Shown here one piece after another: positions 2,728 to 19,779 of a DNA stretch of 20,607 bases; within the stretch, counting starts at the first letter, position 1, and each line of letters opens with the position of its first letter. A program made the translations under genes and the position numbers. The notes under the pieces were generated by a model. That model was not told the origin of the DNA, did not search any database, and saw only the letters and a program-made list of their open reading frames with translations. This DNA comes from Chiloscyllium plagiosum (taxonomy: Eukaryota), in assembly GCF_004010195.1 (NCBI RefSeq), contig NC_057753.1:4874887-4895493 (forward strand), read 5' to 3'.

Positions 2728-3050
2728 ATTGGATTAGATTCCCTACAGTGCGGAAAACAGGCCCTTCAGTCCAACCAGTCCACACCGACCCTCCGAAGAG
2801 TAACCCACCCAGACCCATTTCCCTCTGACTAATGCACCTAACCCTATGGGGCAATTTAGTATGGCCAATTCACCCTGACCTGCACATCTTTGGACTGTGG
2901 GAGGAAACCGGAGCACCCGGAGGAAACCCATTCAGACACGGGGAGAATGTACAAACTCTACACAGACAATCGCCCAAGGCTGGAATTGAAACTGGGTCCC
3001 TGGTTCTGTGAGGCAGCAGCGCTAACGCTGAGCCACTGTGCCCCCCCCGC
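2728..3050 (-). mobile_element. HE1-type SINE
   Basis: Aligns over its full length with the other SINE copies; A/B boxes and AATCT tail on the minus strand. Confidence 0.92.
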
Positions 3051-3062
3051 CTTCTTTTTAAC

Positions 3063-3352
3063 GGGCCCTTCATCCCAACAAATCCACACCAACCCTCTGA
3101 AGAGTAGCCCACCCAGACCCATTCCCTTACCTTATATTCACCCCTGACTAATGCACCCAACACTATGAGCAGTTTACCATGGCCAATTCACCTGGACTGC
3201 ACATCTTTGTACTGTGGGAGGAAACCAGAGCAAATCCACACAGAGACAGGGAAAATGTGCAAACTCCACACAGACAACCCAGCGTGGGAATTGAACCTGG
3301 GTCCCTGATGCTGTGAGGCAGCAGTGCTAACCACTGAGCCACCGTGCCACCC
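3063..3352 (-). mobile_element. HE1-type SINE (longer-body variant, tail missing)
   Basis: Minus strand starts GGTGGCACGGTGGCTCAGTGGTTAGCACTGCTGCCTCACAGC; has an extra internal segment (CCCTTACCTTATATTCACCCC on +) relative to the neighbouring copy. Confidence 0.9.
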
Positions 3353-3689
3353 CATGGGAAAAAAAACATTTTCCATTACAAATCTTCACCATGTGACTGT
3401 ACAAACTGTTTTCTCAATCCTCAACTACCACTTAACAGTCGAGTATTTCCACCATTTTCTGTTTTCAATTTGCTTCTTAATAGCATGAGATTAGAATAAT
3501 TAACTTTTAATCTGATTCATTGACAAACAGAAATATCTTCCACATACATATCCTGCAAACCTTTATGGTGGAAATACTGAATATTGGTTACTGGGTGGGT
3601 CCAGCTGTTTTTGTTTTTAAGTCTTCACTTCTGGCTTTGCCTCAAATCTCTCCAAAACACAAAATAAAATTTCCAGATGGACATTAGAA

Positions 3690-5362: not shown

Positions 5363-5454
5363 GGGCCCGATACTCGGGCAGGAGTTTACCAACATCAGCA
5401 GCACCAGTCCATGAACGTGGTTCAGTCCGGGGCGCGATGAAGATCAAAACTCAG

Positions 5455-6249
5455 TCACTGCGGGTGACCGTGAACTCGCTGGTGGGTCAGCAGGTTGGAC
5501 GAACGGGTGAATCTCTTCCCGCACTCGGAGCAGGTGAACGGCCTCTCCCCGGTGTGCACCCGCTGGTGGGTCAGCAGGCTGGACGAGTCAGTAAATCCCT
5601 TCCCACACACCGTGCAGGTGAACGGCCTCTCCCCGGTGTGCATGCGCTGGTGTATTTGCAGGTTGTACGACTGAATGAAGCCCTTCCCGCACTCTGAGCA
5701 GGTGAACGGCCTCTCGCCGGTGTGAACCCGCTTGTGCCGCAGCAGGGCGGACGAATCGGCGAATCCCTTCCCGCACTCTGTGCAGGCGAACGGCCTCTCC
5801 CCGGTGTGGACCCGCTGGTGGGTCAGCAGGTTGGATAGCTGGGTGAAGCCCTTCCCGCACTCGGAGCAGGCGAACGGCCTCTCCCCGGTGTGGACCCGCT
5901 GGTGGGCCAGCAGGGTGGACGAGCGGGTGAAGCCCTCCCCACAGTCGGAGCAGGTGAAAGTCCGCTCCCCAGTGTGGGTGCGCCGGTGCCTCAGGAGAGC
6001 AGATGAGTCCGCAAACCCCTTTTCACACTCGGGGCAGGTGAAGGGCTTCTCCCCGGTGTGACTGCGCCGATGAGTCTCCAGCTTTGACGGGGAAATGAAT
6101 CCCTTCCCACAGTCCCCGCATTTCCAAGGTTTCCGCACGCTGTGACTGCGCTTGTGTCTCGACAGGGCAGACGACTGTCTGAAGCCTCGCCCGCACACCG
6201 GACACATGTACAATTGCTCCCCACTGCGAGTGGGGCTTTGTCCGTCCAT
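5455..6249 (-). CDS. Tandem C2H2 (Kruppel-type) zinc-finger protein, 264 aa, 9 fingers, no effector domain
   Basis: Open frame with nine CxxC-x12-HxxxH fingers, mostly joined by TGE(K/R)PF linkers. ATG at 6249 has good Kozak context (AACATGG). An in-frame TAA lies 9 codons upstream. Stop TGA ends at 5455. Confidence 0.95.
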
Positions 6250-6385: not shown

Positions 6386-7558
6386 GAGTATCCACAACAA
6401 CAAAACCGGCAGGCACAAAAGGTGCATTGGAGCCGAGTCAATCTGTGGGGCTAAAGGCATGGAAAAGAACAGACCACAAGTGCTGCTGCTAGGATGTCTT
6501 GAGCACCACTCAAGTCACTCGCGCCCACCAGCACAGCAAAACTGCCAACCCGTTCTGGGCTGGCACAAGACCCAGGCTTCAGTAGAAGCACTGGGAACAA
6601 AAGAAGCGGTGGTGGTGGTGGTAGAGGTCAGGGTGAAGGAGAGGGACTTTTATAAACGGCTGCATTTACTGCGAATAGGTGATGAAATTAGTACACAGAC
6701 AAAAACACATCAGTGCAAAGGACAGAAACATCAGTTGTCTGTCACAAAGGTATGATTACAAGGTTGCAAGGAACACAGCACGTATATTTAGGGAACAATT
6801 GAAAAGCCAGCCAACCTGTTATCATTCATTTCATGAAAGTTTGAGCTCAAGAATAATGAAGTCTTACAGTAAGAAACTGGCAGCAGTCTGCATGGTTTTT
6901 GCTTCAATCTAAGACAGAACCGTCCTCTCAATAGTGGTTGGGGGGGTGAACATTCTTACAACCATTCATTTAGTACACAAACAAAATCCTGCTCGATCTC
7001 AGTTGTAATGCACAGGTAATGCTGAGAGAGTCTGCACTCGTTGAATGTGGGAATGATAGTTTGTCGATGTCTCTGTGCTGCAGTAAGGGACTCTCCTCTG
7101 CTTTGGCAAATCCCCTAGGATTGAGGAACTGTAGATCTAGACACCACATGCAGATCTACATCAAGGCAGGCTGACATCCTCACAAATTGAGGGCGGACAT
7201 CAGATGCTAACAGTAGTCCTGTTGTAGCCAACTGACATAAAGGAGGTGCCATCTGCAATGGGTGCAGTTCTGAGTTCCACCTTTCATGTTCGGAACAGAT
7301 ATTCACTTCAGAGATGAAAGGTTGGGAGAAATCAATTGGTCAAATAAATCAGAGAACTGCTGATGCTGGAGAACACAAGCAAAAACAGAAATTGCTGAGA
7401 AACCTCAGCAGGTCTGGCAGCGTCTGTGGAAAGGAAGCTGTGTTAACATTTTGAGTCCAGTGACTCTTCATCCTAACTGTTAGCAGTTGGGAAGACTGGT
7501 GGTTGCATTAGCTGCAGAGGTTAGGTGATGGGATTGGGCTGGGAGTGAGCAGATAGGT

Positions 7559-7748: not shown

Positions 7749-8065
7749 AATCCCTACAGTGCGGAAACAGGCCCTTCAGCCCAACAAGTCCACACTGACC
7801 CTCCGAACAGTAACCCACCCAGACCCATTCCCCAACCCTATTATTCTACATTTACCCCTGGCTAATGCACCTAACCTACACATCCCTGAACACTATTGAC
7901 AATTTTAGTATGACCAATTCACCTAACCTGCGCATCTTCAGACTGTGGGAGCACACCCACGCAGACATGGGGAGAATATACGAACTCCACACAGATAGTC
8001 GCCCGAGGCTGGAATCAAACCTGGCTCCCTGACGCTGCGAGGCAGCTGTGCTAACCACCGAGCCA
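7749..8065 (-). mobile_element. HE1-type SINE inserted in the Penelope 3' region
   Basis: Aligns with the other copies; has an internal deletion in the core (GGGAGCACACCCACGC). Confidence 0.9.
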
Positions 8066-8308
8066 TACATATGATGTGATGATGGGCCTGGGAGTACGTG
8101 GGAATGACTGGCTGTGCTAAAAGCAACCCATGTTATATCAGGACCGGGTGTGGGGTGGGTTAAAGAAAGAAAAAGGATGGGAATCAAGGTCTAAAGTTAT
8201 TGAACTCGATGTAGAGTCCTGGAGGCTGCCAAGTGGAAAGTGAGATGCTGTTCTTTGAACTTGCACGAAAGTTCACTAGAGCACTGCAGCGGGCCTGCCA
8301 CAGACATG

Positions 8309-9252
8309 CTGTGATGAGGAGGAGCCGGTGTTGGACTGGGGTGGACAAAGTTAAAAATCACACAACACCACATTACAGTCCAACAAGCACTAGTTTTCAG
8401 AGCACTGCTCCTTCACTGGGCAGCTATGGAGCAGGACGATAAGAAACAGAATTTATAGCAAAAGATTACAGTGTCATGCAACTGAAATTATATATTGAAC
8501 AAACCTAGATTGCTGTTAAGTCTTTCATAAAGTCATAGAGATGTACAGCTCAGAAACAGACCCTTCGGTCCAACCCGTCCATGCCGATCAGATATCCCAA
8601 TCCAATCCAGTCCCACCTGCCAGCACCCGGCACATATCCCACCAAACCCTTCCTATTTATATACCCATCCAAATGCCTCTTAAATGCTGTAATTGTACCA
8701 GCCTCCACCACTTCCTCTGGCAACCCAGTTCACACATGCATCACCCTGTGTGTGAAAACCTTGCCGTTTAGTTGTCTTTTATATCTTTCACCTCTCACCC
8801 TAAACCTATGCCCTCTAATTCTGGATTCCCCGAACCCAGGCAAAAGACCTTGTCTATTTATCCTATCCATGCCCCTCATGATATTATAAACGTCTATAAG
8901 GTCACCCCCTCAGCCTCCGACGCTCCAGGAAACAGCCCCAACCTATTCAACCTCTCCATATAGCTCAAATCCTCCAATCTTTTAGAATGGGTTGCGGGTT
9001 TCGGTTCATTAATATGTAAATCCCAAATCTCCAGAATCTGACTTCAAAGAAGTTCTGGGATTTACATATTAACGAACCAAAACCTGTAACCCATTCTAAA
9101 AGATGACAGACTTAACAGCAACCTATATTTGCTCAATATATCATTTCATTACATGACGCTGTAATCTTGTGCTATAAACTTATGATCCTCTTCCACAACC
9201 ACCTGGTGAAGGAGCAGCGCTCCGAAAGCTAGTGCTTCCAAATAAACCTTTA
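8309..9252. mobile_element. Fold-back Penelope-like terminal element (family B) inserted in the family A element
   Basis: Left arm (about 8385-8530 plus 8980-9025) is the reverse complement of the right arm (about 9055-9237). Flanked by TSD ACAGACATG at 8300-8308 and 9253-9261. Same family as 10684-10869 and 19351-19779. Confidence 0.8.
8530..8979 (-). mobile_element. CR1/HER1 LINE 3' fragment nested in the family B element
   Basis: Reverse complement matches the CR1 at 15650-16497, including tail GGACCGAAGGGTCTGTTTC..CTGTACATCTCTATGAC. Confidence 0.9.
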
Positions 9253-10683: not shown

Positions 10684-10869
10684 AGTCATGATTTGGAGAC
10701 GCTGGTGTTGGACTGGGGTGGACAAAGTTAAAAATCACCCAACACCAGGTTATAGTCCAACAGGTTTATTTGGAAGCACTAGCTTTCAGAGCGACGCTCC
10801 TTGATCACCCAAAAGCTAGTGCTTTCACATAAACCTGTTGGACTATAACCTGGTGTTGGGTGATTTTTA
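10684..10869. mobile_element. 186-bp fold-back mini-element, family B
   Basis: 59-bp inverted arms at 10728-10786 and 10812-10870 with 2 mismatches. 11-bp TSD ATAATGAATGT at 10673-10683 and 10870-10880. Confidence 0.88.
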
Positions 10870-11092
10870 ATAATGAATGTGTGCTGCCTATGTTTACCCT
10901 TGCCTCATAATTCAACTGCTAGACTCCAGGTATCATTCGGATAAATCTTATCTGTGCATCCTCCAAGGACAGTAATGTTTGTACTTCCTCAGGTGCAGTG
11001 CCCAGAACTGAGTACATGCTCCAGGTGTGATTTAAACAGGATATTAAACAATACCTCAGTCTATTCAATCACACGTAGTCCTGAAACCTTAC

Positions 11093-12200: not shown

Positions 12201-12312
12201 ACAATGGAGAATCCGCAGGATATTGTCACTAGGGATTGGTACATGTTAGGAGTGTGATGAAATACTCTCCAGTTAACTGAACTGGTGCTCCTCCCAACAG
12301 TACAGTAACTCA

Positions 12313-12601
12313 AAAAAGAGAAAATGCTGGAAAATCTCAGCAAGTCTTGCAGCATTTGTAAGAAGAGATAAGAGCTGACAAAGCTTTGACAAAGGGTCAG
12401 TTAGACTCGAAACGTCAGCTCTTTCCACTGCTGATCAGCTCCTGAGCCATGTGCTGTTTACTTACCAGTTTTATCTACAGATGCTGCAAGACTTGCTAAG
12501 ATTTTCCAGCATTTTCTCTTTTTTGAGTTACTGTACTGTTGGGAGGTGCACCAGTTCAGTTTTGGTTTCAGATTCCAGCATCCGCAGTAATTTGCTTTTA
12601 A
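12313..12601 (+). mobile_element. Fold-back Penelope-derived mini-element (family A-like) with hammerhead motif, rearranged
   Basis: Inverted arms AGAGAAAATGCTGGAAAATCTCAGCAAG.. and ..CTTGCTAAGATTTTCCAGCATTTTCTCT. End GGTTTCAGATTCCAGCATCCGCAGTAATTTGCTTTTA is like 2320-2350. 12-bp TSD TACAGTAACTCA at 12301-12312 and 12602-12613. Confidence 0.85.
12382..12420 (+). ncRNA. Minimal type I hammerhead ribozyme motif (Penelope-type), U3-A8 variant
   Basis: AGCT-TTGACAA-A-GGGTC-AGTTA-GACTC-GAAA-CG-TC-AGCT: stem I AGCT/AGCT, core YUGANRA, 5-bp stem II, GAAA, palindromic ACGT stem III, GUC triplet ending at 12416. Confidence 0.65.
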
Positions 12602-12850
12602 TACAGTAACTCACCCAGGTGCCAAACCCATGACCTCTATCACTGAGAATGACAAAGGCAGCATGAGACCATTATCATCTGCACAATTCCCTCCAAGCCA
12701 CATATCATCCTGACCTGCACCTGTACCACTGCTGTTCGTTCACTGTTACAGGTTTGACTTTTAACTGTTACTGTTCCCAACTGTGTCTGAAAGACTTTCC
12801 ACTGCTGATCAGCTCCTGAGCCATGTGCTGTTTACTTACCAGTTTTATCT
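12421..12850 (+). repeat. Perfect 56-bp direct repeat (12421-12476 and 12795-12850)
   Basis: CTTTCCACTGCTGATCAGCTCCTGAGCCATGTGCTGTTTACTTACCAGTTTTATCT occurs twice, identically. Confidence 0.97.
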
Positions 12851-15072: not shown

Positions 15073-15075
15073 CCT

Positions 15076-15370
15076 GGCACGGTGGCTCAGTGATTAGCAC
15101 TGCTGCCTCATAGTGACAGGGACCCGGGTTCGATTCCAGCCTCGGGGCAACTGTCTGTGTGGAGTTTGCACACCCGCCCAGTGTCTGCGTGGGTTTCCTC
15201 CAGATGCTCCAGTTTCATCCCACACTCCAAAGATGTGCAGTTCAGGGTGAATTGCCCATGCTAAATTGCCCATAGGGTTAGGTGCATTAGTCAGAGGAAA
15301 ATGGGTCTGGGTGGGTTACTCTTCGGAAGGTTGGTGTGGACTGGTTGGGCCGAAGGGAATCTAATCTGAT
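15076..15370 (+). mobile_element. HE1-type SINE
   Basis: A box TGGCTCAGTGATTAG at 15083-15097, B box GGTTCGATTCC at 15127-15137, AATCTAATCT tail. Confidence 0.93.
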
Positions 15371-17049: not shown

Positions 17050-17382
17050 GATTAGATTAGATTAGATTACCTATAGTGTGGAAACAGGCCCTTCAGCCCA
17101 ACAAGTCCACACCGACCCTCCGAAGAGCAACCCACCCAGATCCATCACCCTACATTTCCCTCTGGCTAATGCACTTAACACTTTGGGCAACTTAGCGTGA
17201 CCAATTCACCTGACCTGCACATCTTTGGACTGTGGGAGGAAACTGGAGCATCCGGAGGAAACCCACGCAGACATGGGGAGGACGTGCAAACTCCACACAC
17301 ACAGTTGCCCGAGGTGGGAATCGAACCCGGGTCCCTGGCGCTGTGAGGCAGCAATGCTAACCACTGAGCCACCGTGCCACCC
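17050..17382 (-). mobile_element. HE1-type SINE inserted in CR1
   Basis: (ATTAG)n tail at 17051-17069; intact B box (GGAATCGAACC on +, 17317-17327) and A box. Confidence 0.94.
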
Positions 17383-17625
17383 CTTTCTTTAAGAATCTAG
17401 AGACGCTGGAATTTCCTATGAATTGGAATGTAGCTGATACAATGTCACTACTTAAAAGAGGTAGAGGGAAAACAAGGAGGTATGGATTGGTTAGCCTGAA
17501 ATCATTAGTGCAGAAAACGTAAGAGTCCATTATAAACAATTTAAAAGCAGAGCATTTTGATATTGGTGATAGGATTGACCAGAGTTAGAATGGAATTTAT
17601 GAAAGGGAAATCAAGTTTGACAAAT

Positions 17626-18904: not shown

Positions 18905-19350
18905 ATCCATATTTGACATTTACTGGCCCTAATACAAGGGGTGGAGTTTACCAACATCAGCAGAGGCGGACCAAGAACTGGATGTAATTAACATCAAAGT
19001 CCAATCACTGTATCTGATTGTGAACTCGCTGGTGTGTCAGCAGGTTGGATGAATGAGTAAATATCTTCCCCACAATCAGAGCAAATGAATGGCCTCTCCC
19101 CAGTGTGAACTACTTAGTGTATCAGCAGGTTGGATGAAGCAGTAAATCCTTTTCCGCACAGACGGCGGGTGAATGGTCTCTGCCGAGTGTTGGTGTGCTG
19201 TGTACCTACAGCTTGTCTGACTGAATTAATCCCTTCCCACTTTCAGAGCAGGTGCATGACCTCTACCGAGTGTGAACCCACTTTTGCATCAGTAAGGTGG
19301 ATGAATCGGTGAATCTCATCCCATACTCTGTGCAGATGAATGGCTTCTCT
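18905..19350 (-). pseudogene. Truncated C2H2 zinc-finger pseudogene (last four fingers plus 3'UTR), paralog of 5455-6249
   Basis: [97 protein letters not shown] with stops, frameshifts and lost Cys/His. Shares the UTR motif GGAGTTTACCAACATCAGCAG with the intact gene. Confidence 0.9.
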
Positions 19351-19779
19351 GCAAGTTTCAGTTCATTAATATATAAATCCCAGTACTTCTTTTAAGCCAC
19401 ATTCTTGACATAACTTAAGGTTTTATTTATCTCAGCTCAGACAATCTGTTAAAGGTGTGAGTTTAGAGTCTGTCTGTATCACAACCTTGAGTCATACAGG
19501 TTCTATTTCCAAAGTAGGAATGGATAGGTAGGTTGTGTGCTTTTTGAGCAAAAATATAATGTATGATGTTCATGAACCGAAACCTGCAACCCAGTCTAAA
19601 AGATGACAGACTTAACAGCAATCTAGGTTTGTTCAATGTATCGTTTTAATTGCATGACACTATAATGTTTTGCTATAAATTCTGTATTTATGATTCTGCC
19701 CCACGAGTTACCTGATGAAGGAGCAGCACCCTGAGAGCTGGGGCTTTGAAATAAACCTGGCGTTGTGTGATTTCTAACA
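19351..19779. mobile_element. Family B fold-back Penelope-like element with truncated left arm
   Basis: 19570-19779 aligns with 9070-9250; 19351-19390 aligns with about 8995-9025; contains CTGATGAAGGAGCAGC at 19712. Confidence 0.8.

Follow-up and report, generated by a model that had tools for sequence, protein, structure and literature searches.

A 39-nt motif in the genome of Chiloscyllium plagiosum is very probably a minimal type I hammerhead ribozyme (min-HHR), carried by a short, non-autonomous retroelement comparable to those reported for Penelope-like elements (PLEs), a judgement that concerns its identity and origin and not its catalysis. The motif occupies positions 12382-12420 on the + strand of the window, the 20,607-nt stretch of DNA analysed here, and its core carries U3 and A8 where canonical hammerheads carry C3 and G8. 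The window copy itself, probably dead on arrival, is the full-length arm of a head-to-head inverted dimer, the other arm of which is truncated at the GUC triplet.

Read directly from the window, 12382-12420 (+) is AGCT TTGACAA A GGGTC AGTTA GACTC GAAA CG TC AGCT, letter for letter as the first-pass annotation had reported it. In hammerhead numbering this corresponds to U3 U4 G5 A6 C7 A8 A9, an extra A and a 5-bp helix II with a 5-nt loop, followed by G12 A13 A14 A15.1 and then C15.2 G16.2 U16.1 C17. All parts lie on the + strand. The 5' strand of helix I (AGCU, 12382-12385), with which short copies of the family usually begin, leads into the catalytic core box UUGACAA (positions 3-9, 12386-12392), with U3 and A8 in place of C3 and G8. 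It is followed by an unpaired A between A9 and G10.1 (12393), common to all three subfamilies described below and a hallmark of PLE min-HHRs in PMC4209133. Helix II (GGGUC/GACUC, 5 bp with one G-U) and its loop AGUUA span 12394-12408, are closed by the G10.1-C11.1 pair (G12394-C12408) and appear in every predicted fold. The second core box, GAAA (G12 A13 A14 A15.1, 12409-12412), is invariant in our alignment, partly since the fetch patterns demanded it, and overlaps the ACGU palindrome (15.1, 15.2, 16.2 and 16.1, 12412-12415), for which pairing into a 4-bp helix III would require two copies. Hammerhead numbering of the sequence places the predicted cleavage site directly after GTC, between C17 and the next nucleotide (12416/12417), and the 3' strand of helix I (AGCU, 12417-12420) is able to form 4 bp with the 5' strand and pairs elsewhere in the local fold. 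The helix II and helix I pairings, the palindrome and the position of the triplet all agree with the earlier description. The boxes stand in type I order, UUGACAA before GAAA, with U3 and A8 complementary.

A relaxed min-HHR descriptor (C3-G8 or U3-A8 core, 0-1 bulge, helix II of 4-8 bp closed by G-C, GAAA, paired 15.2/16.2, U, H and a 4-bp helix I) matched 12382-12420 alone when run over both strands of the window, and returned 0 matches in 300 dinucleotide-preserving shuffles of the same stretch. The hammerhead at 12382-12420 is not a chance match. The Rfam hammerhead models (RF00163 Hammerhead_1 and others) gave none at the gathering threshold in the window and none at E<=10 around the site; four sister-subfamily copies with the canonical core go equally unrecognised, which deprives the negative result of weight, and the Rfam hammerhead models do not cover such minimal architecture. 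Across the genome RF00163 produced 0 matches among the 73 of 409411 candidates scored, a search in which the controls were silent too and which is hence uninformative. Two family loci, L077 and L052, scored in Rfam as resembling plant or animal microRNA precursors, at 82.7 bits in one case where the gathering score is 330; these scores are an artefact of the long hairpins in head-to-head family dimers.

The motif stretch is a dispersed repeat, with at least 155 matches when 40 of 760 candidates were scored. We counted exact patterns across the 3.56-Gb assembly (101,977 contigs), using the reversed patterns as controls, which returned 0 each. The exact 39-mer occurs in 639 copies. The U3-A8 pattern TTGANAA-A-GRGTC-N3-6-GACYC-GAAA has 2312 matches, nearly all of the window form with loop AGTTA, against 2718 for C3-G8 cores in the same frame (557 with CTGATGA and 2161 with CTGAVGA); the mixed classes C3-A8 and U3-G8 have 348 and 211. 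This genome-wide comparison of variant and CUGANGA cores, a test put forward in the first-pass annotation, identifies U3/A8 as the consensus of one subfamily.

Three subfamilies can be distinguished. That of the window, F3, reads AGCT TTGACAA A GGGTC AGTTA GACTC GAAA CGTC AGCT, and the window copy is identical to this consensus, the intact CpG of ACGU included. The two canonical ones are F2 (AGCT CTGATGA A GAGTC ATCTA GACTC GAAA CGTT AGCT) and F1 (AGTT CTGA(G/A/T)GA A GGGTC ACTG GACCC GAAA CGTT AACT). All have one layout, in which helix I (AGCU or AGUU) is followed by the core box, the extra A, a helix II of 5 bp, GAAA, ACGU and H17, and they have in common a related tail of ~100 nt after the cut site; for the canonical sisters, the layout was viewed with its flanks at 30 loci. 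Judged from these sequences, F3 is a subfamily of a short, non-autonomous and abundant retroelement. The window also holds a decayed relative on the opposite strand: a related terminus had been pointed out at ~7445-7475 (minus), and it does belong to a real sister copy at 7356-7478 (-), of subfamily F1 and with 81-82% identity to it, but its hammerhead is degenerate, with positions 3, 4, 12 and 15.2 changed. Two further tail fragments of the family, inverted and with 72-84% identity, are found at 2144-2354 without a recognisable core.

An alignment of 74 distinct sequences, made up of the window copy and the fetched loci of the subfamilies, was used to assess base pairing. Hammerhead pairs are 91% paired in these sequences, compared to 23-40% with the partners slid by 1-3 columns. 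Helix I lies outside every fetch pattern; its pair 2.2-1.2 reads CG in 50 sequences, UA in 6 and UG in 3, and the helix as a whole changes from AGCU/AGCU in the window to AGUU/AACU in the sister subfamily, such that the 4-bp helix is supported by covariation. Pair 10.2-11.2 of helix II likewise varies (GU 47, AU 22, GC 4), whilst G10.1-C11.1 is GC in 74/74 sequences, but with letters fixed by the fetch patterns. The proposal that the motif is a Penelope-type minimal hammerhead gains from this, since covariation in helices I and II and the existence of CUGANGA sisters of the same layout mark it as a homologue of true min-HHRs. The CpG in ACGU (15.2-16.2) is retained as CG in 33 sequences, with UG in 19 and other letters in 20; because it has decayed in so many, the family copies drift neutrally and are not under selection.

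The pair at positions 3 and 8 requires separate treatment. In the alignment it is U-A in 42 sequences and C-G in 30, a split set by the fetching of 30 loci per pattern and thus of no evidence value. Within F3 we estimate ~2250 U3-A8 doubles, ~94 C3-A8 and ~8-13 U3-G8, the single classes being scaled from the copies in F3 context among 100 matches listed for each (27 for C3-A8, scaled to 348; 4-6 for U3-G8, scaled to 211). Some C3-A8 copies arise where a deletion junction happens to set a C in front of TGACAA (L017, L023, L025 and L029, 4 of the 27 that were aligned), and the single variants look like decay together with junction artefacts. A comparison of singles with doubles had been proposed as a check on covariation, and the double does dominate F3, but common descent predicts the same with or without selection. 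The copies all go back to a single source lineage that handed down U3 and A8 as a pair; they record one event and no independent covariation, and the description of U3-A8 as compensatory cannot be read from them. Decay of a CpG in the copies, from an ancestral CUGACGA to CAA, was also considered and rejected: among 100 matches listed, TTGACGA occurs 4 times and TTGATGA twice in F3 context. Because both are rare there, the source element itself had A8. What the sequences do suggest, short of proof, is that the source element altered exactly the two partners of the core tertiary pair, with complementarity and the other invariant core letters kept.

Positions 3 and 8 are said to pair in the hammerhead, and swapped pairs can reportedly retain part of the activity. 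Such C3-G8 exchange mutants are engineered and sit in full-length ribozymes, in contrast to the window motif, which is a natural minimal form. In the part of PMC11167929 drawn on here, the Poseidon PLE of Anolis carolinensis (PAc) regained some cleavage with C3G/G8C. The F3 core may cleave, a prospect that we place just short of even.

The alternative that survives best, which we hold to be a serious contender though likewise a shade under an even chance, is that the F3 core is catalytically dead, C3 to U and G8 to A being neutral hitch-hikers and the motif persisting by descent or because it serves some purpose other than catalysis, for instance as a leader structure or protein-binding site. 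Several observations would fit a dead core. Min-HHRs cleave poorly even as dimers (PMC4209133), and in the isolated 39-mer the MFE structure (-9.9) pairs the core GAC with GUC, as compared to -8.4 for the hammerhead fold. According to that same part of PMC11167929, a 2024 study of the Anolis PLE, hammerhead catalytic mutants had no effect on insertion in vitro, and no RNA-seq reads ended at the PAc cut site.

Genomic copy starts and RNA reads bear on the same question. Reverse transcription of cut RNA would be expected to leave copies whose first letters are AGCTC. Among F3 tails, 3521 of 3644 keep the T at -2 and 123 do not, and 73 of 100 listed tails of the latter kind still have the family C at -1, so that at most ~1-2% of F3 copies could start at the predicted cut. 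For the canonical F1, 13,888 tails keep it and 1,419 do not, with 71 of 100 listed of these keeping the T at -1 and at most ~5% possibly starting at the cut. Because F1 and F3 behave alike, the start test does not separate the variant from the canonical core; it suggests that RNA cut at the hammerhead is rarely the template in either. The lack of cut-site starts, which would favour a dead F3 core, is therefore matched in the canonical F1 and does not single F3 out. Mapping of one single-cell polyA RNA run onto the monomer L077 showed reads crossing the site with no pile-up of ends there or elsewhere, at a depth of ~30 and from a library poorly suited to ends, and a second RNA run gave 0 reads. 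Against a dead core stand the F3 letters themselves: both changes hit precisely the two bases that form the core's sole tertiary Watson-Crick pair, which stays complementary, U4 G5 A6, A9, G12 A13 A14, U16.1 and H17 are intact in the consensus, and the same double change is reported from another animal lineage (PMC4209133).

A separate observation concerns the tails without T at -2, of which 17 of the 100 listed read AA-AGCT-CTTTTC. These could be either precise losses of the 35 nt between the AGCT words, that is, of the whole hammerhead, or remnants of short palindromes.

We sampled 30 F3 copies by pattern alone and then classified them by their 5' side. In 13 of the 30, unrelated DNA reaches to within ~3 nt of AGCT, which is the family start, whilst 5 extend upstream into a common leader with TATAAATA ~30 nt before AGCT. 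The remaining 12 rows, representing 10 loci, are head-to-head inverted dimers whose second arm is short by 0 to 27 nt. The carrier unit measures ~135 to 370 nt and has no ORF. Head-to-head pairs are common genome-wide: at least 12 were seen among 100 tail matches listed, and no tail-to-tail pair was noticed among the same 100. Several of the genome's dimers form perfect palindromes about one AGCT common to both arms, each arm having the whole core. About a quarter of F3 copies stand in head-to-head pairs, with 5' ends facing and variable junctions. Such an arrangement is consistent with both ends of a target break having primed reverse transcription.

The window copy is one such dimer. Its right arm (12382-12600, +) is a full-length short copy, comprising the hammerhead and a ~100-nt tail ending in ...CAGTAATTTGCTTTTA, and is interrupted by two insertions; 12382-12432, 12476-12522 and 12560-12600 match the monomer L077 at 94-95%. 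Its left arm (12275-12379, -) is an inverted, 5'-truncated second copy that begins at GTCAGCTC and has no hammerhead core, 12314-12379 being 92% identical to the family tail. The inverted arm's GAGCTGAC (12372-12379) faces GTCAGCTC (12414-12421), and the dimer divides into inner arms (12361-12379/12414-12432, 79%) and outer arms (12275-12360/12476-12561, 86 nt, 97%). The earlier statement that the core has no antisense partner holds for this locus, where the arm is truncated at GUC, but this is an accident of one junction: in other dimers the inverted arm spans the whole hammerhead, with junctions lying 0-27 nt from the start of the element. The window's junction occurs 10 times genome-wide.

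The first insertion (12433-12475, +) is present in the right arm only and lies within a 56-nt stretch, 12421-12476, that is 100% identical to 12795-12850. The latter is unique-looking DNA 374 nt downstream, and the left arm is without the 56-nt stretch. The stretch looks like a templated patch that might have been copied into the palindrome, as after break repair near its centre. The second insertion, of ~37 nt in the tail (12523-12559, +), is mirrored in the left arm at ~12277-12313 and absent from nine other aligned copies with the same junction. The two arms of the window dimer are 97% complementary, as against differences of 5-8% between family copies, which points to a single RNA as the template of both arms or to homogenisation of one arm by the other.

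This arrangement has consequences for the window copy as an RNA. The MFE structure of 12270-12565 (-177.7 kcal/mol) is a ~90-bp hairpin in which helix II survives and both strands of helix I pair elsewhere, and when 62 nt are folded, GAGCUGAC takes GUCAGCUC as its partner (-19.0). The promoter leader is replaced by the inverted arm, and the descriptor search found no second hammerhead for a dimer in the window. Given the competing hairpin, the lack of a nearby partner hammerhead and the missing leader, the modelled folds make the window copy a poor candidate for cleavage and probably inert, and we think it unlikely that this copy does anything. That its RNA cleaves itself, paired in trans with transcripts from other family copies, seems to us more improbable still. 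Its 39 nt are those of the F3 consensus with the CpG of ACGU intact, and the single-cell polyA run contains family reads in both orientations on L077; however, the long hairpin would sequester helix I and the cut site, the copy has neither promoter leader nor partner within the window, and it sits, broken by two insertions, in a setting of decaying repeats.

A last reading, in which a palindromic repeat merely mimics a hammerhead and the supposed core TTGACAA is simply a fold-back apex, is scarcely credible and was rejected: TTGACAA is indeed symmetric about its central A (T3-A9, T4-A8, G5-C7) and the inverted arm meets the core directly in some copies (e.g. L026, L073), but 18 of the 30 sampled F3 copies are not palindromic and yet carry AGCT TTGACAA, dimer junctions range over 0-27 nt, AGCT forms the centre of many dimers whose two arms each contain the whole core, and the canonical sisters have the same layout and tail.

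Returning to the reading that we prefer, a min-HHR of a short non-autonomous retroelement, its PLE label is drawn from anatomy and from the literature. PMC4209133 (Cervera & De la Pena 2014) defines the PLE min-HHR by a short helix I, a nucleotide between 9 and 10.1, G10.1-C11.1 and a palindromic 15.2-16.2; it describes thousands of dispersed solo motifs and pairs on opposite strands, has min-HHRs act as dimers with low activity in vitro, and reports a U3-A8 covariant family in Schistosoma with ~1300 hits, the sole description of a U3-A8 hammerhead that we found in the literature. Like the PLE min-HHRs of that study, including the U3-A8 Cercyon of Schistosoma mansoni, the family analysed here is type I with a helix I of 4-5 bp, an extra nucleotide and G10.1-C11.1; it further resembles them in having no real helix III, dispersed solo copies in consensus families, opposite-strand pairs and one U3-A8 family. 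It differs from the Schistosoma min-HHRs in helix II (5 bp here, 7-8 bp there), and from the published U3-A8 case in that U3-A8 comes with C7 and H17 = C in a short, ORF-less carrier. A Pfam scan placed no PLE ORF among 84 flank ORFs beside the copies, which held scattered RVT_1 fragments alone, and a genome search for GIY-YIG gave 1 weak match among the 150 of 14403 candidates scored.

Two other hammerhead systems invite comparison. In the viroid CChMVd, an extra A between A9 and G10.1 is reportedly compatible with activity; that hammerhead is of viroid type III with full helices, and the extra A after A9 is common to it and the window motif. Non-LTR retrozymes, so far as the parts of PMC7229834 and 10.64898/2026.07.22.740005 used here describe them, are likewise short, non-autonomous hammerhead units, proposed to derive from PLE pLTRs, and units of this type are present in most non-mammalian, non-avian vertebrate classes. 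By the same partial account they form tandem arrays and circular RNAs and have a 6-bp helix I and loop-loop contacts, whereas the copies in C. plagiosum are dispersed or head-to-head: no tandem array was seen among the 30 sampled copies, and the window copy is a head-to-head dimer.

From these features we propose how the family may propagate. In source elements, the TATA box TATAAATA ~30 nt upstream would start transcription at the AGCU of helix I, and the hammerhead would form the first 39 nt of the source RNA. Two RNAs, or tandem units, may pair through ACGU to form helix III, and each paired hammerhead would then cut after GUC, slowly and perhaps with protein help; in this step U3-A8 would preserve the Watson-Crick contact made by C3-G8. 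Both ends of a target break may prime reverse transcription of family RNA, such that the cDNAs would meet at their 5' ends and leave head-to-head dimers. We posit this dimer origin because PAc protein, in the portion of PMC11167929 cited above, cleaves and extends both target strands in vitro.

The window contains several other repeats. Minus-strand frames at 5386-6189 and 19067-19357 are arrays of 84-nt repeats, which by their 28-codon period resemble tandem C2H2 zinc-finger units. Another dispersed repeat has at least 6 copies (1687-1966, 2755-3050, 3059-3353, 7765-8077, 17082-17383 and, inverted, 15075-15357), and its end resembles a tRNA-derived SINE head (GGGAATCGAACCCGGG...). Hairpin repeats of other families lie at 10728-10870 (arms of 59 nt at 97%, loop of 25 nt) and 8977-9104 (arms of 54 nt at 89%, loop of 20 nt).

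The architecture and the U3-A8 variant were both published in 2014 (PMC4209133), and the finding is little new for ribozyme biology as such. The first-pass annotation presented this as a core that CUGANGA searches would miss, but a descriptor for U3-A8 dates from 2014, and the core is no novelty. The finding is of use for annotating the C. plagiosum genome, where thousands of such motifs escape both the Rfam models and CUGANGA patterns. The genomic record of copy starts agrees with the in vitro result for the Anolis PLE, as far as the portion of PMC11167929 considered here goes. Tentatively, and as the less probable outcome in our estimation, F3 would be a young subfamily of several thousand copies whose source switched from C3-G8 to U3-A8 and kept transposing; if the core cleaves, the hammerhead active site would have acquired a natural compensatory mutant a second time, independently. 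In that case F3 and its canonical sisters would offer a natural pair, within the same genome, for testing the purpose of the PLE hammerhead. Taken together, two canonical sister subfamilies and one with U3-A8 in a single genome provide a natural comparison for asking whether PLE hammerheads need cleavage.
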